This document shows, in pieces, positions 29,799 through 42,250 of a DNA stretch of 64,000 bases (its first letter is position 1; every line of letters begins with the position of its first letter). The translations under genes were made by a program, and so were the position numbers. The stretch is from Nitrospirota bacterium. GTDB taxonomy: Bacteria; Nitrospirota; Thermodesulfovibrionia; UBA6902. The stretch spans positions 5,874-69,873 of the forward strand of contig JACRPZ010000002.1 of NCBI GenBank assembly GCA_016222905.1, read 5' to 3'. The notes under the pieces were generated by a model. The model was not told the DNA's origin and searched no databases. It saw only the letters and a list, made by a program, of their open reading frames with translations.

Positions 29799-30678
29799 TT
29801 AATTTGTTTCGCTGTGATTTAGTTCTTTTTTCAAATTTTTCATATGCCTTGATTATATGCTGAACAAGCTTATGCCTTACCACGTCTCTTTCAGAAAAAT
29901 AAATAAAGCGCAGCCCTTTTATATTCTTCAGTATCTTCTCAGCCTCTATAAGGCCGGACCTCTTTTCCGACGGAAGATCTATCTGAGTGATGTCACCTGT
30001 AATCACTGTCTTTGAATTAAAGCCTAACCTTGTGAGATACATCTTCATCTGCTCTGATGTTGTATTCTGTGCTTCATCGAGTATTATAAAAGAATCGTTC
30101 AGTGTTCTGCCCCTCATAAAGGCAAGCGGGGCTATTTCGATAACGCCTTTTTCAATCAGTCTATGGGCTTTTTCAGCATCCATCATATCAAAAAGCGCGT
30201 CATAAAGGGGCCTTAAGTAAGGATTTATCTTTTCTTGTAAATCTCCGGGCAGGAATCCGAGCCTCTCCCCCGCCTCGACTGCGGGCCTTGCCAGTATAAT
30301 TCTGCTTACCTGCTTTTTAAGAAGCGCATTTATGGCCATCGCCATCGCCAGATAAGTCTTGCCTGTGCCGGCGGGGCCTATGCCGATAACCATGTCATTG
30401 AGCTTTATCGCTTCAATGTAATCCCTCTGTGCTGATGACCTTGGAACTATAAAATTCTTCTTTGATGATACAGGTATGGTGTTTAGAAGAAAATTTTTAA
30501 GCGGAGCTGACGGCGCGGCGTTCTGCACGGACGGATCTTTTACAGCGGTATCGTCAACAGCCTTTATTATATATTTTAAATCCTCAGGATTAATGGCATA
30601 ACCGTTGGCATTTACTGATTGCAGTTCCCTGAGAAGACCCTCTGCCCTCTTCACAGACTTTTCATGGCCCTGAAGCAA
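29770..30678 (-). CDS. phoH: PhoH-like ATPase (YbeZ).
   Basis: Walker A 'GPAGTGKTYLAMAMA' and KH-like N-terminal region. Confidence 0.85.
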   Translation of the reverse strand: MLQGHEKSVKRAEGLLRELQSVNANGYAINPEDLKYIIKAVDDTAVKDPSVQNAAPSAPLKNFLLNTIPVSSKKNFIVPRSSAQRDYIEAIKLNDMVIGIGPAGTGKTYLAMAMAINALLKKQVSRIILARPAVEAGERLGFLPGDLQEKINPYLRPLYDALFDMMDAEKAHRLIEKGVIEIAPLAFMRGRTLNDSFIILDEAQNTTSEQMKMYLTRLGFNSKTVITGDITQIDLPSEKRSGLIEAEKILKNIKGLRFIYFSERDVVRHKLVQHIIKAYEKFEKRTKSQRNKLNEERQTAKT

Positions 30679-30879
30679 TATCTTGCTTCCCCTGATCGAG
30701 GCGTCAATGCCGAGGGCTTCCTCTATTATTCTCAGGCTCTTATCGAGTGTGCCGTATGTCTGTGAAAGGTCTTTCTCTTCTCCTAAATCTATCTCGAGCT
30801 TAACCGTAGGCCTTCTCCTTTTTTTATATTATACTCGATATTGCCGATTTCTTATAACCTTAAGAATCGGGCAATATAT

Positions 30880-31890
30880 CTATATTACCAGCATCGCGTC
30901 CCCGTATGAAAAAAACCTGTAACCGGTCTTTTGAGCCCCTGCGTAAGCCTTTTTCAAAAGGCTGAGTCCTGAGAATGCGGAGGTGAGCATCATTGGGGTT
31001 GATTTAGGCTGATGAAAGTTTGTAACAAGCGCGTCTATTACCCTGAATTCATAGCCGGGATAGATAAATATTGACGTATCCCCTTGACCGCTCTTTATTC
31101 TCCTGCCGGAACATCCTGAAGCAGACGCTTCAAGCGCCCTTGTCACAGTCGTGCCTACTGCAATGACCCTTCTGCCCTCTGCTTTAGCGAGGTTAACAGC
31201 CCCGGCGGTCTCTTTCGAGATTTCGTAAGATTCAACATCCATAACATGATTTTTAATATCATCGCTTCTGACCGGTTTAAAAGTGCCGTAACCGACATGG
31301 AGTGTGAGCATCCGCACATCAATGCCTTTCTTCTTTATAGCATTGATAATTTTATCAGTAAAATGAAGGCCTGCCGTAGGCGCGGCTATCGCCCCTTCTT
31401 TATCTGCATATACTGTCTGATAGCGTTCAGTGTCAGTTTTTCCAGCCGCTCTCTTTATATATGGAGGAAGCGCCATAACCCCGATCTTATCTAAAGAACC
31501 CCTTATGTTTTCCCCTTCAAATTTTACTCTGGCAACCCCGTTTGACGGCGATACATGAGCTGTGATGCCGCCCTTGAGCGAAACCTTCCCCTTAAATGCC
31601 CCTTTCATAATGGCTTCCCATACATTTTCCTGAAGCTCTTTCAAGAGCAATATCTCTGTCTTCCCTCCCGATGCTCTTGTTCCGTAAAGACGCGCCGGAA
31701 TAACTTTGGTATTGTTAAGAACAAGAACGTCTCCCGGCTTAAGAAACTCAACAATATCTTTGAAGAGCCTGTGTTCAAACATGTCGGACTCCCTGTTAAG
31801 AACACACAATCTGGAGGACTCCCTATTCGGAAGAGGATGCTGCGCTATCCGGGCTTGAGGTATATCGTAATCAAATTCTGAAAGTTTCAT
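30880..31890 (-). CDS. queA: S-adenosylmethionine:tRNA ribosyltransferase-isomerase QueA.
   Basis: 'MKLSEFDYDIPQARIAQHPL..R..SRL' N-terminus and overall QueA organisation. Confidence 0.9.
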   Translation of the reverse strand: MKLSEFDYDIPQARIAQHPLPNRESSRLCVLNRESDMFEHRLFKDIVEFLKPGDVLVLNNTKVIPARLYGTRASGGKTEILLLKELQENVWEAIMKGAFKGKVSLKGGITAHVSPSNGVARVKFEGENIRGSLDKIGVMALPPYIKRAAGKTDTERYQTVYADKEGAIAAPTAGLHFTDKIINAIKKKGIDVRMLTLHVGYGTFKPVRSDDIKNHVMDVESYEISKETAGAVNLAKAEGRRVIAVGTTVTRALEASASGCSGRRIKSGQGDTSIFIYPGYEFRVIDALVTNFHQPKSTPMMLTSAFSGLSLLKKAYAGAQKTGYRFFSYGDAMLVI

Positions 31891-31927
31891 ATGACTTGCT
31901 TAACCCAAAAAATACATTTAAATAAAA

Positions 31928-32080
31928 CCACAGAGTTCACAGAGCTTTTCAAAAATCTAAAATTCTTTTTCTCTGTGTCCACTGTGGTGAAACAATTCTT
32001 TCCCTCTTTTTTTATGAAACTTTTAATATTACCAATTCTTCTTTTGCTATCAAAATATTTCCTCTGAGGTCTCTGTGGTT
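31928..32080. repeat. Three copies of a CCACAGAG/CTCTGTGG motif. Two form an imperfect inverted repeat followed by a T-rich run on the minus strand, a possible terminator of the ygjP-hsd operon or a regulator site.
   Basis: ccacagagttcacagag (31928-44), tctctgtgtccactgtggtg (31970-89), cctctgaggtctctgtggtt (32061-80). Confidence 0.3.
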
Positions 32081-32096
32081 AATTGCGGTTCCCGGG

Positions 32097-32768
32097 TTAA
32101 ATGCTCAAAGTCCTTCCATTATCCTTCAACCACGTTCGTCTTCTTTTGAAATCAGGCTGAATGCTTTTGACCTTATCCCAAAATAACCTTGAATGATCTC
32201 TTTGCTCCAAATGTACAAGTTCATGCACAACTACATAGTCAATTATTTCCATCGGCGCCATTATCAAACGCCAGTTATAATTTACCGTTCCTCTGTACCC
32301 GCTTGAGCCCCATCTTTTTTTAGCATTACTGATTTTGATTGATAGCGGCTTGTATCCGGTAAGCCTTGAATACCACTCACAGCGCTCTTTTATCTTCTTT
32401 TCTGCTTCAGATTTGTACCATTTTTTCACAACATCCCTGGCACAAGACGCTTTCTCTTGAGATAAAAGCAGATTATCTTTAAGCTCAACATCACCAACAA
32501 TATCATCCACAATTTTCAACTTATAGCTCTCTCCAAGATAAAGGAACGACTCTCCATTTATAAATTCTTTGTCTTTTGGCTTGGGTTTTCTCTGCATCTC
32601 CCGCATCTTTGTCCTGATCCAGTCTCGTTTTATATTGACCAGACTCTTAAGGTAATCAAGCGGGGTTTTTAGCGGAGAACGAATAACAAGCGTTGCATCA
32701 TGCGTCACCACAAGCGCAATCGTTCTTCTCTTTGAGCGGATTATTTTGCTGATCTCAATTTCTTGCAT
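32097..32768 (-). CDS. YgjP-like metal-dependent hydrolase (DUF45/WLM-like, HExxH).
   Basis: 'YVVVHELVHLEQRDHS' HExxH motif. This family commonly flanks Type I RM operons. Confidence 0.6.
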   Translation of the reverse strand: MQEIEISKIIRSKRRTIALVVTHDATLVIRSPLKTPLDYLKSLVNIKRDWIRTKMREMQRKPKPKDKEFINGESFLYLGESYKLKIVDDIVGDVELKDNLLLSQEKASCARDVVKKWYKSEAEKKIKERCEWYSRLTGYKPLSIKISNAKKRWGSSGYRGTVNYNWRLIMAPMEIIDYVVVHELVHLEQRDHSRLFWDKVKSIQPDFKRRRTWLKDNGRTLSI

Positions 32769-32778
32769 TTTCGATTCT

Positions 32779-33096
32779 TTAAAATCTCGGCATTAATTTT
32801 AACCTTTTTTCCAATTTCTCATAATCACCTAAATAAGCCATCATTAGAGCTTTCCAGAGTTTGCCATGATTCGGGACTCGGAAGTGCAGGAGTTCATGAA
32901 CGATTACATATTCGCCCAAGTCTTGTGCCATTGCAAGCAATGCCTCGTCAAATGTAAAGTTGCCTTTTGTTGAACACGAAGCCCATTTGTTTTTCATCTG
33001 GCGAATCGTGATATGGCTTGCCTTCACGCCAATATTATCGGCAAAGTGAAGAACTCTCTTCTTAAATTCTTCTTTATTTTTCCAATGTTTTTTCAT
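32779..33096 (-). CDS. Second short YgjP/DUF45-like protein (HELLH).
   Basis: 'YVIVHELLHFRVPNHGKLW'. Overlaps the hsdR stop by 4 nt. Confidence 0.5.
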   Translation of the reverse strand: MKKHWKNKEEFKKRVLHFADNIGVKASHITIRQMKNKWASCSTKGNFTFDEALLAMAQDLGEYVIVHELLHFRVPNHGKLWKALMMAYLGDYEKLEKRLKLMPRF

Positions 33097-36023
33097 AGCT
33101 TAAAGGCTTTGAATAGATATGAGAAAAATGTTTCTACGAATTTAATAATGTCTTCATCTGAAGCCTGGTCGTCATGATTCATAATTGCAAACATTACTTG
33201 TTGCCGTAGTTCTCTCAGGTCATTCTCGCTTGTCTTCCAATGAGGATTATACGCAAACGCATGTTTTATTTTTCGTGCGATTGTTTCTGAATTCTTGAAA
33301 TTCTTTTCAACCAGCAATAGGTAAACGAAGTAAGTAATATCGTCAAATTGTTTTTCTGCCTGTTCTCTCTTCTGTTCAACTGTTCTTTGAATCAAAGATT
33401 CCAGCCTTGCTAAAGTTTCTTCTGTGGTCAACTGACGGGCTTCATATCCTTCCTGAATGGCTTCAGCCTTTTGCTTCATCGAGATAAGCACCAGATCACC
33501 TTCTTCATCATCCGCTGCCTTATCAATGCTTTTAATCAGGTTGATGATTTTCACATTGTCGGGTTTGTTGTTCTTTTTAATTTCCTCCAATGTATGTTCA
33601 TTGATCTCAAACAAATCAGTTGGTTTACCTAATCCCGCTATCTCAACTCGTTCCTTAACAAGACTTTCCGTCTTGCGCATAAATTCCCTGTCCACATAAA
33701 CACGCTTCACAAAGGCATTGCGGACTATTAAGTACATATCGCATAGCAATTTGTATTTGTCTATATAAGGAAGCAGAAACTGATCCGGCGAAATGATTTC
33801 GTAAAGGGTTTCAATCTGCTTGTAGAATTTAAATAACTCGGTGCGCCTGGATTTGTCTTTGAAGTATTCAATCAGCTTGTCTGTTTCTTTATCGGTAAAA
33901 GGCTGATTTACCAGTGCCGCATACACAGAACCTTCATTTTCCATCTTCTCGTTGAACAGGTTCTTCAGCAGGGCAATGTCTTTCACAACAGCATTTACTT
34001 CATCAGAATCAAATGAAAGCGCCTTTTCGAGTTTATCAAAGATACCGATAAAATCAAGCACAAAGCCGTGAGGTTTTTTTAAATCCTTGTCTTCGTCCTC
34101 ATACGGTCTGTTTACCCTTGCTATGGCTTGCAGTAAAGTATGGTCACGCATCGGCTTATCAAGATACATTGCATACAGGCAGGGCGCATCATAACCGGTA
34201 AGCAGTTTCTCTGTTACGATAAGCACCTTTGGCAGCTTTTCAATGTTTGCAAAATCTTTCCGTACTGCCTTTTCATCTCTTGAAGTAAGATAGTATCTCT
34301 TTAATGCTTCACTGTCATTCTGTGCAGGGGTATAAACCACTTTTGAATATTCAGGCGGCAGATATTTATCCAATGCTTCCTTATACAAGGCACAAGCCTC
34401 TCTGTCAACGCCCACCAGAAATGCCTTGTAGCCCAGCGGTTCTACATTTTCTCTGAAATGCTTTGCCACATACTGAGCCACTGCATCAACCCTCTGGTCT
34501 GCCTTGAGGAATGTTTTTGTCTGCACGGCCCTTTGCAGTATCTTATTCAGCTCATCAATGTCACTGATGCCTTCTGTTTCTGCAAGGGATAAAAATTCCT
34601 TCTCCAGCAGCTCTGAAGGAACGCGCAATTCATTAGGCGCAAGCGCGTAGAAAAGCGGAAGGGTTGTTCCGTCTTTAATGGACTCGGCAATAGAATATTT
34701 ATGCAGATAACCTTTATCATCATCAATGCCGAAAATTTTAAATGTGCCTTTACCGTAAGCTGTTTTGTCTACTGGTGTGCCTGAAAAACCAATTAACGAT
34801 GAATTTGGGATAGCAGCCATCAGGTAAGTGCCAAGATCGCTTCCTGTGCTCCGGTGTGCTTCATCAATCAATACATAGATATTCTTTCTGGTGTTAAGGG
34901 GTTTATCGGTCTTGTCGAATTTATGGATCATTGAAACGATAATGCCCCGGTAATCTTTCTTTAAAAGCCGATTGAGATGCACACGGCTTGTGACCAGAGT
35001 AACTGCTCCAATGCCTAATGATTCAAGATTACGCTTCATCTGGTCTTCTAATTCGTTGCGGTCCAGTAACAAAATGATGGTGGGCTTTTCGGCCTGAGGC
35101 GCTTTGTAAAGCATCTCAGCAGTTTTGATGATGGTAAATGTCTTGCCGCTGCCTTGTGTATGCCATACCAAACCCCTGCGCTTTTCAGGCGCAATGCATC
35201 TGTCTATTACGAGTTCAACCGCCTTTGTTTGATGCTGCTTCAGGATAAACTTGTTTAGCTCCTCATCCTTCTCTACAAACAGGATGTAATTCTTTATAAA
35301 AGCCAATACCTGCGGGATGGCACAAAAGGTCTTAACCTTGGCTTCAAGATTGCCGATTTCCTCATGCTTCCAGTTGAATATATTTCTGCGGACTAAATTC
35401 CATGTGACACCATAAGAGAATCCCAATGATTCGGTAACAGAGAGCAATTGTTGCGGCAGCATCATTTCAGGAGTTTCCCTGTGGTAGCGCCTGATCTGGT
35501 CAATGCCTATGGCAATGGCTTCGTCTTTTGTTGCGTTCTTACATTCAATTACCAAAACAGGAATACCGTTAATGAGAAACACAACATCCTCACGGTTGGC
35601 ATAATGGCCATTGAAAACTGTGTATTCTTCAGTGATGTGATAAACATTTTTATCAGGCTCGGTAAAATCAATCAACTGCAAATTGAGATCACGGTTTTCG
35701 GCCTTGCAGAAGTAGGTTTTTTCGCCTCTTAGCATTGTCAGAAAATCACGGTTGCCTTGTATGCTAAAAGGAAAGTTGGTTAAGGTTCGGATGAGTTCTT
35801 CCTTGCTGAGTTCATAACGAGGGTTAAACTCGATGACCTTATTGAACAGAATATCGTCAAAGAAGAGAGAGGCCTTTCGTGCCTGCTCTTTAGGGGTTAA
35901 AGCATTCAGGTCAAACTTGCGCCATTCCTCTGCTTGTGATTGTAGAATAAAAGTCCACCCGATTTGCGATGCATAACGGGTGATTGGATATTGAACGGCT
36001 TTATGTTCTGTCGGCCCGGGCAT
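33093..36023 (-). CDS. hsdR: Type I restriction enzyme, R subunit (HsdR).
   Basis: 976 aa; N-terminal HsdR_N region, helicase motifs 'GSGKTFT' and 'DEAHRS', plus a C-terminal domain. Confidence 0.9.
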   Translation of the reverse strand: MPGPTEHKAVQYPITRYASQIGWTFILQSQAEEWRKFDLNALTPKEQARKASLFFDDILFNKVIEFNPRYELSKEELIRTLTNFPFSIQGNRDFLTMLRGEKTYFCKAENRDLNLQLIDFTEPDKNVYHITEEYTVFNGHYANREDVVFLINGIPVLVIECKNATKDEAIAIGIDQIRRYHRETPEMMLPQQLLSVTESLGFSYGVTWNLVRRNIFNWKHEEIGNLEAKVKTFCAIPQVLAFIKNYILFVEKDEELNKFILKQHQTKAVELVIDRCIAPEKRRGLVWHTQGSGKTFTIIKTAEMLYKAPQAEKPTIILLLDRNELEDQMKRNLESLGIGAVTLVTSRVHLNRLLKKDYRGIIVSMIHKFDKTDKPLNTRKNIYVLIDEAHRSTGSDLGTYLMAAIPNSSLIGFSGTPVDKTAYGKGTFKIFGIDDDKGYLHKYSIAESIKDGTTLPLFYALAPNELRVPSELLEKEFLSLAETEGISDIDELNKILQRAVQTKTFLKADQRVDAVAQYVAKHFRENVEPLGYKAFLVGVDREACALYKEALDKYLPPEYSKVVYTPAQNDSEALKRYYLTSRDEKAVRKDFANIEKLPKVLIVTEKLLTGYDAPCLYAMYLDKPMRDHTLLQAIARVNRPYEDEDKDLKKPHGFVLDFIGIFDKLEKALSFDSDEVNAVVKDIALLKNLFNEKMENEGSVYAALVNQPFTDKETDKLIEYFKDKSRRTELFKFYKQIETLYEIISPDQFLLPYIDKYKLLCDMYLIVRNAFVKRVYVDREFMRKTESLVKERVEIAGLGKPTDLFEINEHTLEEIKKNNKPDNVKIINLIKSIDKAADDEEGDLVLISMKQKAEAIQEGYEARQLTTEETLARLESLIQRTVEQKREQAEKQFDDITYFVYLLLVEKNFKNSETIARKIKHAFAYNPHWKTSENDLRELRQQVMFAIMNHDDQASDEDIIKFVETFFSYLFKAFKL

Positions 36024-36029
36024 TTGTAG

Positions 36030-37313
36030 CTATACCTTTTTAAACTGCAAATCCTTCACCCTTATCTGCCCCGTCATCAATTGATGCAGCATGCTGCGGA
36101 ACAAGGCCATGAGAGTTTGTTTTTTTGTCTGGTGATGCTGGAGTTTTCTATCTAATACCATTAATGAATTAGCAACTTCTTCTTGTTCTATTTTTGTCTT
36201 TGGAATAGCTAATCGAATATCTTTTAAATCTTCTCTTGTAATGCCTTTAATTGTTGCACCCCTTTTTTGTGCTTCAAATATTCTTTGAACTCTTTCCGTG
36301 AGAATTTGGTAAGCAAGAAATTCAAGACAATACTTTTTTCTATTAATAAGAATTCCCGTTAAATCTTGGCTAATTGCCATATCAACTAAATTGATTGCAA
36401 CTTTACCAACTGTTACCCTTGTTGAGACGATCAGATTATTTTTAGGAACTACATTTGATGAACTATTCCCTAAGCCAATTTTTGAAATTCTCCTTTCGCC
36501 GTCTTCAAGGTAAATTTTATCAGTTGCTAATCTTTTGCTGGTTGTCCAATGAATATCTCCAATCCAATACTTATCATTCTTTGTTGAAGGAGTTCCACCG
36601 CCCAAAAAATTAAAACCTACATTTTCAATCTTTTTTACCTCCCAACTCGCCGGTATCAAGCCGACCTCGGTTTGTTTCTGCGCTTCTCCTTTTGTGCCTT
36701 CGGTGAAGAGTTTTTGCATCAGGGCATTTTTCAACTCTGTTGTGGTTCGGATTATCTGCTCCTGCTTTTGTATGGCGGATTGCATAAGGGTAAGGATGTG
36801 GGAGATGGATTGTTGTTCAGAATATGGGGGAAGAGGAATTTTAATTCCTTTTACATCTGAATCCCTAACAGCAGGATAACTTGCTCCTCTTTGCAATTGA
36901 GCAATCTCATTAATATAGAAATCAGTTAAAAGGTAGTAATATAAAAATCTGTAAGCAACCAATGACTTGTTGGCTTTAAGGACGCAATACCCTGTGCTGC
37001 ATAATTCTTTATGGAGATCGGACTCAACTATTGCAACTCTTTTCAATGTAGGTCTCACAGTAGCAAAAATTACATCATCTGCTTCAATTATTTTTCTTGC
37101 TCTGCTTGGGGCATTTTCCCCTTTCAGTATTGAGTATTCTTGTATTTGGAAGAGTTCGTTATTAACTCCGGAAACATCAACATATTTTATTTCTTCATCC
37201 GGTTTTTTACTTGGATCTCTTTGTTGTGTTTTCAGAACGACTTTGCTGATTGGAATATAATCCCAATCTTTTGGCAGAAATGCTTCCTCAATATGCTTTG
37301 AATGATTCACCAT
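36030..37313 (-). CDS. hsdS: Type I restriction-modification specificity subunit (HsdS) with two target-recognition domains.
   Basis: Two repeated half-domains with conserved inter-TRD coiled-coil regions (LPPLSEQQ..I-like 'LPPYSEQQSI'). Position between hsdM and hsdR. Confidence 0.8.
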   Translation of the reverse strand: MVNHSKHIEEAFLPKDWDYIPISKVVLKTQQRDPSKKPDEEIKYVDVSGVNNELFQIQEYSILKGENAPSRARKIIEADDVIFATVRPTLKRVAIVESDLHKELCSTGYCVLKANKSLVAYRFLYYYLLTDFYINEIAQLQRGASYPAVRDSDVKGIKIPLPPYSEQQSISHILTLMQSAIQKQEQIIRTTTELKNALMQKLFTEGTKGEAQKQTEVGLIPASWEVKKIENVGFNFLGGGTPSTKNDKYWIGDIHWTTSKRLATDKIYLEDGERRISKIGLGNSSSNVVPKNNLIVSTRVTVGKVAINLVDMAISQDLTGILINRKKYCLEFLAYQILTERVQRIFEAQKRGATIKGITREDLKDIRLAIPKTKIEQEEVANSLMVLDRKLQHHQTKKQTLMALFRSMLHQLMTGQIRVKDLQFKKV

Positions 37314-37316
37314 TAA

Positions 37317-38912
37317 TCAATACCCAATTTTTTCCAAAACAATTCTCAATTCTTCATCAACGATCTTTGCTTCTTCATCCAACTCATTCAACTCAACCAC
37401 CAACTCGGCGATATCCCTGTGCTCTATAGCATCAGCAGTATGTATGTAGCGGCTGGGGCTAAGGTTGTAGTCGTTCTTTTCTATTTCTGCCATGGTTGCA
37501 ATGAGAGCAAATTTATCCGCTTTGCCTTTGCCATTGGCAAACAGTTTTTTATAAGTGCTGACAATTTTCTCTATTGCCTCATCGTGCAGATAGTTCTTTG
37601 GATCGCCTTTTGTAAAGTCACGGCTGGCATTGATGAGGATGAATTTTTCTTTCAGTTGTTTGGGTTTGTTGTGGTTCAAAAACAACACAATGCCCGGAGC
37701 GCTGGTGTTGTAAAACAGGTTTTCAGGGAGATACAAAATGCCTTCAATCAAGTCCTGCTCGACAAACCATTTGCGCATTTCCTTTTCCCGGTCTTTGCTT
37801 TTGCTGCCGCTGCCACGGCTTACTGCACCAGTATCCAATACAATTGCTGCACGGCCATTATCTTTTAAAGATGCAAGGATATGCTGAGCCCATCCCCAGT
37901 CAGCGCTGTCGCTTGGAGGTATGCGGTTGCCGAAGCGGTCATATTCGTCATTCTCATAAACATCTTGTGTAAATGTCTTCTGGTTCCACATCGGGTTGGC
38001 AGTGACCCGATCAAATTTCTTCAAGCCTTTGCCTTTATAATCAAAGCGGCTGGGTTTTGTCATTGTGTTGCCAATCGCTATTTCCCCTTCCATTTCGTGA
38101 ATGACCATATTCATATTCGCCATGGCCCAGGTAGCGGGAGTATATTCCTGCCCGTAGAGTTTTAAAGGGGCGTACCGGGTTTTGCTTCGCAGTTCCATCT
38201 TCTCCTGTAACACCAATTCCATTTTAATCAACAATCCGGCAGAGCCGCTGGTGGGGTCGTAGCCTTCCATCCCCGGCTCCGGGTCAAGGATGCGCGCCAT
38301 GACAAAACCAACTTCTTTCGGGGTGTAAAATTCCCCCGCGCTCTGTCCGCCGCCCTCCGCAAACTTGCGTATGAGGTATTCGTAGCTTCTGCCAATGATG
38401 TCAGGTTCCACATCCTTTAAGCCCAGACGTTTCTCACTTATTTTATTGATAAGCTGAGAAATCTGGTCGTCATCCATGTCCCGCTGTCCGTGAGTGGTAG
38501 CATTGTAATCAATGCGGTTAATGATTCCCTCTATTCGTGTGTTCTCCTTTGCAATCCCCCGCATAATATCGGTAAGCTGCTGGCCGAGGCTTTCCTTTTC
38601 TTTCGCCTGCAAAAGTTTGATCACATTCCAGGTGGGATCATTTCCAACATCTTTGGAACGAATAGGAAGATAGAAGCGAACCAGCTTATGATCTTTCTCG
38701 ATCAAACTAAAAGCCCGTTTACGGCTGCCAGCCTGTGAAGAAATTTTGTTGACCTCATCATCAAACACATCACACAACCGCTTCACAAATACCAGGGGAA
38801 GTATAAAATCTTTGAACTTCGGCGCATCCTGCGCTCCTCGAATCGCACAAGCCGCATCCCATAACCAAGACTCAAGAGTTTTTTCTTTATCGTTGTTGTT
38901 ATTTTTTGCCAT
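37317..38912 (-). CDS. hsdM: Type I RM N6-adenine DNA methyltransferase (HsdM).
   Basis: 'GSAGLL' SAM motif and 'NPMW' (NPPF/NPPW-type) catalytic motif. The ORF track starts at 38972, but the internal 'MAKNNNNDKEKTLESWLWDAA' at 38912 is the typical HsdM N-terminus. Confidence 0.8.
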   Translation of the reverse strand: MAKNNNNDKEKTLESWLWDAACAIRGAQDAPKFKDFILPLVFVKRLCDVFDDEVNKISSQAGSRKRAFSLIEKDHKLVRFYLPIRSKDVGNDPTWNVIKLLQAKEKESLGQQLTDIMRGIAKENTRIEGIINRIDYNATTHGQRDMDDDQISQLINKISEKRLGLKDVEPDIIGRSYEYLIRKFAEGGGQSAGEFYTPKEVGFVMARILDPEPGMEGYDPTSGSAGLLIKMELVLQEKMELRSKTRYAPLKLYGQEYTPATWAMANMNMVIHEMEGEIAIGNTMTKPSRFDYKGKGLKKFDRVTANPMWNQKTFTQDVYENDEYDRFGNRIPPSDSADWGWAQHILASLKDNGRAAIVLDTGAVSRGSGSKSKDREKEMRKWFVEQDLIEGILYLPENLFYNTSAPGIVLFLNHNKPKQLKEKFILINASRDFTKGDPKNYLHDEAIEKIVSTYKKLFANGKGKADKFALIATMAEIEKNDYNLSPSRYIHTADAIEHRDIAELVVELNELDEEAKIVDEELRIVLEKIGY

Positions 38913-38992
38913 AAGCTCTTTTAAAACCAGCCTCTTGATTTTAATCAAACGTGAGGATAAACGACAAGGCAAATAGGCACATTATAATTCCC

Positions 38993-39439
38993 CTATGGAT
39001 ATTTTATCAGCTTCTTGATAAAAGGCTTCACAATAGGGCTCTCTTTTATTGCCTGAACAATCTTCTCCTTAACTTCTTTTGGGATATTGCACGTCACAAT
39101 TGTAAATTTATGGTCAGGATCCACTATTTTCCCGAAATGTGATTTATGTATCAGCTTTGGCTGATTGCAATCAATAATGCTCATCTTCTTTAAAAAAGAC
39201 AGCTCGTCCTTATTTACAATGACAAGGCTCGATCCCGCGACTTGATTGGTTTTGTGATAATACCACGCTTTGTTCTCAACCTGAGAAGTAATAATGCATA
39301 ACAACAAACTTGAATCGTCACTGATAGGCACTGTTATATGATAATGAGGCGGGGCTTCCGGATTGTGAGTTGTGTTCTTGAAATAGCATACGCAAAATCC
39401 TGTCAGAGTTTTGGCGATATACTCCAGCGGGATGTCCAC
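38993..39439 (-). CDS. Hypothetical 148-aa protein immediately downstream of a Panacea-domain antitoxin; candidate cognate toxin of unknown family.
   Basis: 2-nt spacing to the upstream DUF4065 gene, same strand. No motif I can recognise. Confidence 0.4.
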   Translation of the reverse strand: MDIPLEYIAKTLTGFCVCYFKNTTHNPEAPPHYHITVPISDDSSLLLCIITSQVENKAWYYHKTNQVAGSSLVIVNKDELSFLKKMSIIDCNQPKLIHKSHFGKIVDPDHKFTIVTCNIPKEVKEKIVQAIKESPIVKPFIKKLIKYP

Positions 39440-39441
39440 GA

Positions 39442-40008
39442 TCAGTCAAATGTGCCTGTCAGAATTTTTTCTGACTCTTTGACATGTCTGCGCGGCATTG
39501 ACAGCGGATCATTCCTTAACGTGGAGAGTAATTCTTTTGTCTCGATACGCTCTCTTTTTGTGAGTTTATTCTTTAGCATATCTTCATATCTATACCATTC
39601 AGGATACTGGTGCGTATAATTTCTTAATTGCCATGAGGTCATAGTTCCAAACTTATCAATAATAAAATCCAGAGATTCTTTATCAGTATCTGACAACATA
39701 TCAAATGAAACTTTAGCTTTTGGATTTGCACTGAAATGATTTTCATCAATCTTTTCGATTAATGACGCCGCATAGCGGTATCCTTTTTTTGAGAAAAAAG
39801 GGTCAAAGCTGAGTACGTCTTTAACTGTTGTCCCTACCGGCCCGTGTTCCATTGCATAGTAATCATCATTTGTAATGGTTCGTCCGTAGCGAATGAGATG
39901 GTACTTGTCAGCAAGATATATTAGCTTGACGAGTTTGATTTTATCGGCTTTTTTCAGTTTCTTGAGGATATAATAAAGCGCTTCAATTATGGTGGATGTC
40001 TCTATCAT
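39442..40008 (-). CDS. Panacea-domain (DUF4065, SocA-like) antitoxin.
   Basis: 'KLVKLIYLADKYHLIRYGRTITNDDYYAMEHGPV' is the DUF4065/Panacea signature. Confidence 0.7.
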   Translation of the reverse strand: MIETSTIIEALYYILKKLKKADKIKLVKLIYLADKYHLIRYGRTITNDDYYAMEHGPVGTTVKDVLSFDPFFSKKGYRYAASLIEKIDENHFSANPKAKVSFDMLSDTDKESLDFIIDKFGTMTSWQLRNYTHQYPEWYRYEDMLKNKLTKRERIETKELLSTLRNDPLSMPRRHVKESEKILTGTFD

Positions 40009-40077
40009 GATAATTTCCCTGTAATGTCTTTAGGTGTAAGATTTTATACGTTAATTATATCAGAAAAAAGTTCTCAG

Positions 40078-40308
40078 TTAAACAAAAGCAAAGACGTCCA
40101 TGCTGACGGTCTTTTCAGGCTTTGCTTCTCCGTGAACCATGCGACGGATCTTTTCAGTTGTTTCCATACTGAAAACAGGCTCGCCGCACCTTTCACAGAT
40201 TGCAGCAGGAATATGCTCAACCAGCACAGGTTTACCGTCAATTTGAAAAACCTCATTTACAAACCCTTCTTTTGCTTCTGTAAAGCCGCATGCATGGCAA
40301 TGAAACAT
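40078..40308 (-). CDS. YgiT-type zinc-finger (MqsA N-terminal-like) antitoxin.
   Basis: 'CHACGF...ICERCGE' two CxxC pairs; 76 aa. Pairs with the upstream DUF4258-like gene. Confidence 0.7.
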   Translation of the reverse strand: MFHCHACGFTEAKEGFVNEVFQIDGKPVLVEHIPAAICERCGEPVFSMETTEKIRRMVHGEAKPEKTVSMDVFAFV

Positions 40309-40310
40309 CT

Positions 40311-40620
40311 TTACCTCCTTTTCTCAAAACCAATCCATTGCACTTCGTCCGGTTCGTAAATAGTGATAATCTTTAAAATTTCAGAATCCTCAACGGATAT
40401 CTGCATGTGCAACGGACGTTTATTTTGAGTAAAACCTAATAATAAACAACTCGGCGAATATTTATCATCAGGATGATTCTTCAATAATTTTAACATTATT
40501 TGCGGTTCCGCGTATTTCGAGTTCACTGATATTACGCTCGATTGCGCGTTTGAACGCATGACGGGTAAATTCGAACTGTCCTGATGTTAACTGCTTACGA
40601 ACTTGTTCAATTGTTTTCAT
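40311..40620 (-). pseudogene. DUF4258-family toxin gene disrupted by a +1 frameshift.
   Basis: The N-terminal frame from the ATG at 40620 reads 'MKTIEQVRKQLTSGQFEFTRHAFKRAIERNISELEI...KIIEESS*'. The C-terminal frame (track ORF 40311-40559) reads '...HPDDKYSPSCLLLGFTQNKRPLHMQIS...IITIYEPD'. Deleting one base in GAAGAATCATCC (rc of 40471-40482) restores 'EEYPDDKY', so the two halves form one family member in two frames. Confidence 0.6.
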
Positions 40621-40661
40621 CTATATGCATAACCTATGTTTTAAGAAGTGGTAAATTTTTC

Positions 40662-41675
40662 TTAATCTCCGACAGCCTGCTTTCCGATATTTGTCCCGGG
40701 ATAATAATGCGCAAGGATTTCTTTGTAGTTCTTCCCTTCTCTTGCCATTTCAAGCGCTCCCCACTGGCATAATCCGACTCCGTGTCCCCATCCTCTGCCT
40801 TCAAAGGTCACGCCTGCCTGACCAGTAGGCATAATCTCGGCCTCTTTGGTAAGCGAAAAGTCAGTGCTTGGAAGTATTTTATACCCAAGGTACTTTCTGA
40901 GATCAGTTGCTCTGATCTCCAATTCTGTTTCTGCAGTACCTGTGGTTATCTTAAGCGTTTTCACTCTCCCTGTGGATGTATATGAGGCTATAGTTATATC
41001 CTTTACGTTCCCTTTTATGCCAACAGCCTTTCCTATCTCATCAAAGGTAAATTCTCTCATCCAGTTATCATAAGGAGTGTTTTTGCTGTTGCAGTCGACT
41101 GACTTCAGGTAAGGATAGCTTCCGCCCCACACCTCTTCGGGAAGCTCCGTCTTTCCAATACATATTGAATGATACAGTGTTTTTGCAGGATTGCCTTCAT
41201 ACATTAAAATCTCTCCCCAAGTCCCCTCTACGGCACGGGTTATCTGAGGATTGATATTATCCTCTTTGAAGACCTGATGAAGCACGCTGGATGTGAGGTC
41301 ATACTCCTTATCTTTATTAAGGTTTTTATAAAAGAGAGCGTATGTTCTTGAGATGACAGCCTGCGCCTTAAGTGCCTCCATCTCCCATCCTCCTCCAGTC
41401 TCTGAAGCCACAACTCCTTTAATATATTTCTCGAAAGGCAGGTCATCTATAATGTAAAGTCCTTTTTCATCCCTCCTCACCTCAAGAGAGCCGGTATAAG
41501 CCTCTCCTTTAAAGAATATCTTTCCGTTTAACTTTCCAAGCCTCTCGGTCTTTTCAGAGGGAAGAGGGGAGTCAGGGTCATCAAGCATCAATACCCTTAT
41601 ATTATCCTCAGCCAGCGAAATCCGGCAGAGAAGAAAGAGAGATGCAAATATTATTAGATATATAAGTCTTTTCAT
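40662..41675 (-). CDS. SpoIID/LytB-domain protein (amidase enhancer-like), secreted.
   Basis: Signal peptide. 'GRGWGHGVGLCQWGA' is the SpoIID signature. Confidence 0.8.
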   Translation of the reverse strand: MKRLIYLIIFASLFLLCRISLAEDNIRVLMLDDPDSPLPSEKTERLGKLNGKIFFKGEAYTGSLEVRRDEKGLYIIDDLPFEKYIKGVVASETGGGWEMEALKAQAVISRTYALFYKNLNKDKEYDLTSSVLHQVFKEDNINPQITRAVEGTWGEILMYEGNPAKTLYHSICIGKTELPEEVWGGSYPYLKSVDCNSKNTPYDNWMREFTFDEIGKAVGIKGNVKDITIASYTSTGRVKTLKITTGTAETELEIRATDLRKYLGYKILPSTDFSLTKEAEIMPTGQAGVTFEGRGWGHGVGLCQWGALEMAREGKNYKEILAHYYPGTNIGKQAVGD

Positions 41676-42250
41676 CTTAGAGCCATTCTTCTCTCTTCCC
41701 TGCTGAAGATACAGCCGCAGTATTTCTGTCTGTAAAGCCCAAGCTCTTTGGCCATAGCCTGCGACTTTCTGAAATGCGGCCTGAAATCTTTGACATAAAA
41801 AAGGATATTATATTTTTCAGCCAATTCTTTTCCTGTTGCAGCAATCTCTTCAAAGTCCTGATACGGACTTATCAGCAGGGTTGTTGAGAAGGCATCAAAG
41901 CCGTTTTGACAAACCTTTTCAGCAGTCTTCTCAAGCCTCAGCTTATAGCACATTTTACAACGTTCAGCCCGTTCAACATTATTAGCCTCTTCTACATGGT
42001 CAACTCCGCTTAAATCGTCAATTCCGAACATTTTAAAATATTCTGCCGGATCATAGTCTTCAGTGTAATGCATTTTAACAAACCATCTCCCCGCAAGCTC
42101 TTTAAGAGAATCAAGCCTTAAGCTGTATTCTTCATACGGATGGATATTCGGATTAAACCAGAAACCTGAATAATCATGCCTCTCTTCCTGTAACAGCTTG
42201 AAAGGGTATGCGGCGCAATTGCCGCAGCATATGTGAAGAAGAATCTTCAT
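41672..42250 (-). CDS. queH: Epoxyqueuosine reductase QueH (DUF208).
   Basis: 'LLHICCGNCA' Cys cluster and C-terminal 'KYCGC'. Typical QueH size (192 aa). Confidence 0.8.
   Translation of the reverse strand: MKILLHICCGNCAAYPFKLLQEERHDYSGFWFNPNIHPYEEYSLRLDSLKELAGRWFVKMHYTEDYDPAEYFKMFGIDDLSGVDHVEEANNVERAERCKMCYKLRLEKTAEKVCQNGFDAFSTTLLISPYQDFEEIAATGKELAEKYNILFYVKDFRPHFRKSQAMAKELGLYRQKYCGCIFSREERRMALR

Follow-up and report, generated by a model that had tools for sequence, protein, structure and literature searches.

An accessory island between queA and spoIID of a Nitrospirota bacterium, probably built stepwise from a YgjP-like peptidase gene, a Type I restriction-modification operon, a predicted Panacea toxin–antitoxin pair and a DUF4258/YgiT cassette with a broken toxin

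The DNA between queA and spoIID was analysed in a window of 64,000 nucleotides (nt), meaning the whole stretch under study, from an uncultured Nitrospirota bacterium (contig JACRPZ010000002.1, positions 5,874 to 69,873), and an accessory stretch of 8.5 kb was found there, inserted in a Nitrospirota row of housekeeping genes. The preferred reading, to which a probability of about 0.8 is given, is that of an accessory island built stepwise from YgjP-like peptidase genes, a Type I restriction-modification (R-M) operon, a PanA/PanT pair (PanAT) and a DUF4258/YgiT cassette with a dead toxin. One element of this island is an orphan full-length YgjP-like metallopeptidase gene. The R-M operon, hsdM-hsdS-hsdR, would end in a gene for a 105-residue HExxH metallopeptidase that overlaps the hsdR stop, PanA and PanT would form a type II toxin–antitoxin (TA) cassette with its own promoter-like site, and the DUF4258/YgiT cassette would have had its toxin killed recently by a 1-nt insertion, with an orphan antitoxin left behind. 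Every component of the island belongs to an already known kind. The original prediction for this DNA had listed YgjP-like genes, hsdMSR, a Panacea antitoxin with a partner and a YgiT/DUF4258 pair, stacked as three immunity or addiction modules between queA and the spoIID-like gene; the gene content and coordinates were confirmed by Pfam and NCBIfam profiles, and the three modules are real.

The accessory status of the island was determined in six Nitrospirota relatives (L006–L011), found by a QueA scan with one genome per species and then searched with the window proteins by tblastn. In five of them (L006–L010; QueA 54–61% identical) nothing separates queA from spoIID just upstream of it, and none of the island genes occurs; as far as the contigs reach, the flanking genes are kept as well, which covers both sides in L006, L008 and L010. 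L011, the closest of the six (QueA 88% identical), has a single gene between spoIID and queA, the long YgjP gene, 82.5% identical to the window copy. Since spoIID adjoins queA in L006–L010 and L011 holds the long YgjP only, the island is accessory; universal conservation of its gene order in relatives, which would have made it core, was looked for in these six genomes, and the order was not conserved. Two contigs were found by exact look-up of the YgiT protein, and the locus was compared in L094 and L090 (both from run SRR12113394) and in L093 (run ERR14790946). L094 and L090 match the window at 100% identity. In L093, an identity of 92.5% over queH-spoIID-DUF4258-YgiT is followed by a 213-bp spacer unrelated to the window and then by hsdM (84% identical) and hsdS, with no Panacea pair; at this locus the Panacea pair was found only in the window and in SRR12113394. 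At least three histories are thus visible, because the long YgjP is common with L011, the DUF4258/YgiT cassette and the R-M genes are common with L093, and the Panacea pair is limited to the window and SRR12113394. The features of the island are as follows.

31900–32100, no strand: palindromic non-coding insert of 193 bp, with TTAA on both flanks
32097–32768, minus strand: full-length YgjP-like HExxH metallopeptidase, 223 amino acids (aa) (PF01863, 190.9 bits, 3.5e-56)
32779–33096, minus strand: short YgjP-like metallopeptidase, 105 aa (PF01863, 92.2 bits, 6.1e-26)
33093–36023, minus strand: hsdR, 976 aa (TIGR00348, 449.9 bits)
36030–37313, minus strand: hsdS, 427 aa (PF01420 in two stretches)
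37317–38912, minus strand: hsdM, 531 aa from its most likely start, ATG 38912 (PF02384, 285 bits, and HsdM_N)
38993–39439, minus strand: panT candidate, 148 aa (MazF/PemK-fold prediction; no family match)
39442–40008, minus strand: panA, SocA/Panacea-domain predicted antitoxin, 188 aa (PF13274, 85.8 bits, 5e-24)
40054–40081, minus strand: promoter-like site 5' of panA (TTAACT, 16-nt spacer, TG-TATAAT)
40078–40308, minus strand: YgiT-type zinc-finger predicted antitoxin, 76 aa (TIGR03831, PF15731)
40311–40620, minus strand: DUF4258 toxin pseudogene (Pfam match split over two overlapping frames)

In the DUF4258/YgiT cassette the toxin gene was found to lack an intact reading frame. The frame at 40468–40620 covers profile positions 1–33 and the one at 40311–40559 covers positions 29–71, the lesion being one extra C (minus strand, window position 40475) that changes the Tyr49 codon from TAT to TCAT and is followed by a stop three codons on. 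When joined, the two frames give 102 aa with 953 intact homologues, the best of which has 94% identity, 100% coverage and a length of 102, and Tyr49 is invariant in the six intact homologues that were aligned. Compared with the allele of L093, the window gene shows four substitutions and exactly one 1-nt gap, so that the predicted inactivation of this toxin was confirmed as a single inserted base relative to an intact allele. The YgiT protein is identical in the window and in L093, where the intact DUF4258 precedes it. With TIGR03831 it scored 35.1 bits (cut-off 20.2) and PF15731 covers its residues 3–59, and at 76 aa it falls below the cut-offs of the full-length MqsA models (TIGR03830, 28.6 against 61.8; PF15731, 24.7 against 30); it corresponds to the N-terminal zinc-finger domain of MqsA only, with no helix-turn-helix (HTH). 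The order of toxin and antitoxin and the CxxC zinc finger of YgiT are the same as in MqsRA-like cassettes, but the antitoxin of the window is without the MqsA HTH and the toxin is a pseudogene. DUF4258 toxins belong to the RelE/ParE superfamily and DUF4258–MqsA fusions are on record, and no DUF4258 protein had been characterised according to the same 2025 review (PMC11980606). The toxin was inactivated recently, which leaves an orphan predicted antitoxin. The reverse was observed at positions 2446–5232 of L093, where the DUF4258 toxin is intact and the gene calls break hsdM and hsdS into two parts each; this suggests that different modules decay in the sister lineages, the alternative being assembly error in the L093 run.

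The lack of a tRNA, of an integrase or recombinase (Pfam matches) and of att-like direct repeats bounding the island leaves absence from the site in relatives as the mark of an integrative genomic island that was found here. This lack of mobility genes and att sites marking separate insertions would also fit an island that came as a single block, with L011 and L093 as deletion derivatives and no stepwise build-up, and loss of PanAT in L093 is possible since the spacer between YgiT and hsdM there is unrelated to the window sequence. Such an origin is considered improbable, for each of the two cassettes, PanAT and DUF4258/YgiT, is also found by itself at many unrelated places, such as downstream of ftsZ, beside cbi/cobalamin genes, adjacent to Usp genes or in the guaB–guaA interval, an R-M-like gene lies within 5 kb in only three of 43 PanAT metagenome loci, and the nucleotide identity to L093, 92.5% over queH-YgiT against 84% over hsdM, suggests different histories. 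Because both TA cassettes are found alone at unrelated sites, piecemeal assembly is favoured, and the comparison as a whole favours an island assembled stepwise, in layers, in which the long YgjP would be an older layer. The frameshift in DUF4258 was weighed in the same way. A single-base difference in a gene otherwise four positions off the L093 allele, with the ribosome-binding site and the downstream antitoxin gene intact, could be an artefact of sequencing or assembly, or the site of a programmed frameshift from which toxin is still made. A toxin that is alive in either of these ways is nevertheless judged very unlikely: the extra base lies outside a homopolymer run (GAATCATCC), no slippery sequence is evident, the toxin is a single open reading frame (ORF) in all 120 homologues listed, nearly all of them of 102–106 aa, and the same frameshift is reproduced in a second assembly, that of run SRR12113394 by Logan. 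Two points weigh against the layered history with a dead toxin as told here. The Logan assembly is not fully independent, because its contigs are 100% identical to the window and may stem from the same reads, and, the spacers between YgiT and hsdM being unrelated, a gain of PanAT in the window lineage and a loss in L093 would both fit.

The host row in which the island lies has the conserved order ruvA-ruvB-queH-spoIID-queA-phoH. All genes flanking the island are housekeeping genes: ruvA, ruvB, queH and spoIID lie past one end, while queA, phoH, a 7TM-HD protein gene, ybeY and dgkA lie past the other. The minus strand carries all the real genes across 30.8–43.9 kb of the window. The G+C content of the island is 40.6%, compared with 43.1% in the remainder of the window. 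Two queuosine genes, queH (41672–42250) and queA (30880–31890), stand in this row with spoIID between them, and the row is split by the island; the gene row queH-spoIID-queA was kept in all six of the Nitrospirota relatives examined.

On the queA side, repeat-containing non-coding DNA had been predicted to bound the island. The repeats are present, in a 193-bp insert between the queA start and the long YgjP stop codon, but they are not the end of the island, because the long YgjP beside them is itself common to the closest relative, L011; the insert is a separate one and is absent at the L011 junction, which reads catTTAAagtgtATG, whereas the window reads catTTAA-[193 bp]-TTAAgcaagtcatATG. Its inverted arms of 19 nt lie at 31926–31944 and 32062–32080 and a third copy at 31971–31988, the motif of the three copies being ACCACAGAG-NNC-NCAGAG, and its RNA fold has a z value of -3.95. 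Neither the rest of the window nor 1.5 Mb of retrieved loci contained a second copy of the insert, Rfam gave no match in 30000–42000, and a single copy of the motif occurs upstream of prfB in L006 (11838–11855). This TTAA-flanked element looks like a small insertion of the miniature inverted-repeat transposable element (MITE) or repetitive extragenic palindrome (REP) kind.

The Panacea antitoxin of the island had been predicted with an unknown partner. The antitoxin stood, and the partner was refined to a MazF-fold protein by Foldseek, sub-threshold PemK_toxin matches and hhalign. PanA matched the Panacea domain (PF13274) over residues 26–139 with 85.8 bits, the cut-off being 25.7. It has no N-terminal domain and carries a C-terminal extension of ~45 aa (residues ~140–188), with some positions conserved, and this tail may be the neutralising element. 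The promoter-like site 5' of panA agrees with the consensus at 10 of 12 positions and has an extended -10, as a consensus match only, and panT begins at a GTG 2 nt past the PanA stop codon. Seven PanT members, from 76% to ~30% identical, were looked up, and all seven lie immediately downstream of a Panacea gene of 188–197 aa, in seven different neighbourhoods. A metagenome scan gave 43 further PanAT loci; where enough upstream DNA was available (32 loci), PanA ended ≤60 nt from the PanT start in 29, and the remaining three comprised one PanA ~90 nt away and two truncated remnants. The identities of PanA and PanT to the window pair co-vary, with r = 0.96 over 36 loci, and the two genes form a conserved, adjacent unit on the same strand across neighbourhoods. 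One of the seven neighbourhoods, that of a distant PanAT pair from a human-associated metagenome (L075, 1–5444), resembles a prophage (ERF, YqaJ, SSB, S24 repressor), and a canonical PemK_toxin gene is found ~5 kb from this pair.

The 148-aa PanT itself has 54 close homologues, the full-length ones 40–94% identical and all of them unnamed or hypothetical; where an organism is named, it is a metagenome bin of Nitrospirae or Nitrospinota. When its profile was run against 1.84 billion cluster representatives, 529 clusters were matched with E≤1e-3, of which 197 also passed E≤1e-10; their length is mostly 140–170 residues, and Pfam, NCBIfam, PADLOC and PHROG have no model for the family. An alignment-based AlphaFold model of PanT reached a predicted local distance difference test (pLDDT) score of 91.4 and a predicted template modelling (pTM) score of 0.85, and the top 17 Foldseek matches of this model were MazF or CptN, with probabilities of 0.99–1.00; the fold is an SH3-like barrel of the MazF/CcdB type. 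PemK_toxin was matched below threshold by 18 of 127 diverse PanT members (best E 1.1e-3), no other Pfam family recurring, and the CptIN toxin model was touched by two family members. With hhalign, the family aligned to Bacillus subtilis MazF or to a five-sequence MazF alignment with E values of about 2–5e-4, and T51 of PanT (in ITSQ) was paired with MazF Thr48 and Q93 with Gln79. The catalytic pair of this MazF is taken to be Arg25 and Thr48. Across the broad PanT family H32, C91 and S134 are invariant, and F20, T51 and N92 nearly so. Since the Thr is kept and the Arg appears to be replaced, the PanT family is regarded as a structural relative of MazF and not as a member of PF02452. The PanT family profile gave chance matches only against the PDB sequences, and tblastn of PanT and of one distant member against phage and plasmid collections found nothing. 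The NCBIfam model NF045891 ('Mbov_0400 family ICE element protein'), which describes a protein about as long as PanT found on integrative conjugative elements of Mycoplasma, was weakly matched by 11 of the 127 members (best E 1e-3), and a remote relationship to PanT may exist.

Panacea antitoxins with distant MazF-like toxins have been validated experimentally by Kurata et al. in 2022, with direct complexes shown, and the MazF-like PanT toxins of that work likewise escape domain databases (PMC8832971). The pairs of P. moraviensis (cluster T6) and B. ruminantium (cluster T25) consist of a Panacea-only antitoxin abutting a small downstream toxin, as in the window, and the toxins have a MazF-like fold outside domain databases in both cases. 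The window-type cassette moves between sites, including prophage-like ones (L075), and its PanT differs from those of T6 and T25 in that a His stands in the place of the catalytic Arg or beside it and that a C-terminal motif, SPxVKPFIKK, is conserved. The window family is not equated with T6, T25 or any other published cluster, T1 and T8 being possible identities; no Pseudomonas or Bifidobacterium names occur among the homologues of the window PanT. In contrast to MazEF, PemIK and Kid-Kis, the window PanT has no PF02452 match, appears to lack the Arg of the Arg/Thr pair and is partnered by Panacea instead of MazE or PemI, and compared with MazF, PemK and Kid it has a two-helix insert (residues 54–71) and a C-terminal extension.

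The Type I operon next to this pair is intact, and its genes are predicted to encode the N6-adenine methyltransferase, specificity and restriction subunits. HsdR scored 449.9 bits with TIGR00348 (cut-off 284.55) and showed the Pfam domains HSDR_N, SWI2_SNF2/ResIII and T1R_D3-like, and its D...ExK nuclease, GSGKT and DEAH motifs are all present, as in a PD-(D/E)xK nuclease joined to a DEAD-box motor. HsdS has two target-recognition regions (PF01420 twice; PADLOC Specificity_I, 1.3e-65) and shares one operon with HsdM, which matched PF02384 with 285 bits together with HsdM_N (PF12161; PADLOC MTase_I, 1.7e-161) and has DPTSGSAG as motif I. At motif IV (residue 306) HsdM reads NPMW and not the usual NPP[FYW], and this looks like a subfamily trait and not damage, because the homologues of L093 and of Deinococcus geothermalis pDGEO02 share it. 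The hsdM gene had been predicted to start at TTG 38972; the gene was found as described, but its alignment with the called hsdM of L093 begins at ATG 38912, which is most likely the start. A promoter-like site lies 5' of hsdM at 39010->38981. A PADLOC run, proposed earlier as a check, recognised the Type I R-M genes and no other gene of the island with its models. A functional link between PanAT and the R-M operon was rejected, and their adjacency is regarded as incidental, because just three of the 43 PanAT loci have an R-M-like neighbour in the 5 kb around them.

The two YgjP-like proteins both pass the PF01863 cut-off of 26 and have an HExxH motif. The long one covers profile positions 1–206 of 207 and reads HELVH; the 105-aa one covers positions 113–205, the C-terminal catalytic half only, and reads HELLH. 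Their genes form a tandem with 10 nt between them and differ in history: the long gene is shared with L011 and the short one is part of the R-M cassette. The 105-aa gene begins within the end of hsdR, the two sharing 4 nt that include the hsdR stop codon (ATGA, 33093–33096), which suggests coupled translation. The 105-aa protein matched projannalysin (4jix; E 6e-5, residues 7–102) and proabylysin (4jiu; E 5.6e-4), minigluzincins with the same soluble HExxH scaffold of ~105 residues, and since this match spans nearly the whole protein, the short gene, and it alone, corresponds to the minimal soluble catalytic scaffold of ~100 residues. To our knowledge, the solved archaeal minigluzincins have no R-M context. 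The same order, hsdM-hsdS-hsdR-peptidase, occurs on D. geothermalis pDGEO02, where an 'M48 family metallopeptidase' of 120 aa, 41% identical to the 105-aa protein, likewise has a start that overlaps the hsdR stop by 4 nt; in contrast to operons of the pDGEO02 type, the window has a second, full-length YgjP gene directly after, which is older there than the R-M cassette. Because the short form recurs in D. geothermalis and matches the minigluzincins, the 105-aa gene was rejected as a truncated pseudogene or fragment. The minigluzincin family is said to include the DNA–protein-crosslink proteases Wss1 and Spartan (PMC4559962). ArdC was rejected as a precedent, being a metalloprotease-domain anti-restriction protein whose protease activity is dispensable, and a literature search linking YgjP, DUF45 or COG1451 with Type I R-M found nothing useful. 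At the level of a guess, the 105-aa peptidase could remove or limit HsdR or act on HsdR or DNA-bound complexes, and the minigluzincin might be a functional fourth component of such Type I systems, for instance one that clears HsdR complexes stalled on DNA.

The persistence of the long YgjP alone in L011, tightly packed between spoIID and queA, and the lack of an hsdR neighbour in five of the 13 plasmid records opened would suit a different account, in which both YgjP-like genes are housekeeping hydrolases unrelated to immunity and located here by chance. This account is thought doubtful, given that the short gene has the very 4-nt overlap with the hsdR stop that its D. geothermalis counterpart shows, that a Type I hsdR adjoins the YgjP-like gene in the other eight of these records, sampled across bacteria and archaea, and that neither gene occurs in the five more distant relatives. 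As regards PanT, several observations weigh against an RNase of the MazF kind held by PanA: the catalytic Arg25 of MazF is not conserved, H32/Y33 occupying its position in a low-confidence part of the alignment; the window PanT reaches no curated family threshold, that of PF02452 included; the PanT–MazF profile–profile probability is just 32–49%; and the single-sequence AlphaFold model of PanA was unusable, with a pLDDT of 36. Because the catalytic Arg is not conserved, the chemistry or the target of PanT could differ from those of MazF. The MazF/CcdB fold might, for example, serve a target other than RNA, as in a DNA gyrase poison like CcdB, with PanA still the antidote, but this is unlikely, as Foldseek lists only RNases at high probability, CcdB is outranked by eleven MazF, Kid and CptN RNases in the structure comparison, the catalytic Thr position is kept as the near-invariant T51, and the only recurrent sub-threshold family matches, PemK_toxin and CptIN, are both RNases. 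That PanT is an endoribonuclease neutralised by PanA is the fairly probable reading, its toxicity, its RNase chemistry and its neutralisation all being predictions. PanT would then be a divergent MazF/PemK-fold toxin, most likely a sequence-specific endoribonuclease, held inactive through direct binding by the Panacea antitoxin; it would be freed when PanA is lost or triggered, for instance by phage, and would then cause growth arrest, as addiction or abortive infection. More tentatively, the 148-aa proteins may be a distinct, unnamed MazF-fold clade dedicated to Panacea antitoxins, with a His-based active site (H32 and T51, with the invariant C91 and S134) in place of Arg/Thr, an added basic C-terminal motif and a differing chemistry or RNA target, the PanA tail acting as a plug removed by a phage trigger.

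What the analysis adds is the fold assigned to the Panacea partner, the layer-by-layer history of the island and the exact lesion of its toxin. With the first of these, a 'hypothetical protein' family of ~529 clusters becomes a predicted MazF-fold toxin with a fixed Panacea partner, for which a family model can be built. That a minimal Wss1/Spartan-like peptidase is repeatedly coupled to hsdR raises a small question on Type I systems that is worth an experiment. With its dead toxin and intact R-M genes, set beside a 92%-identical relative with an intact toxin and fragmented R-M gene calls, the island is a clear case from nature of how cassettes for defence and addiction may accumulate one by one in a housekeeping operon and then decay.

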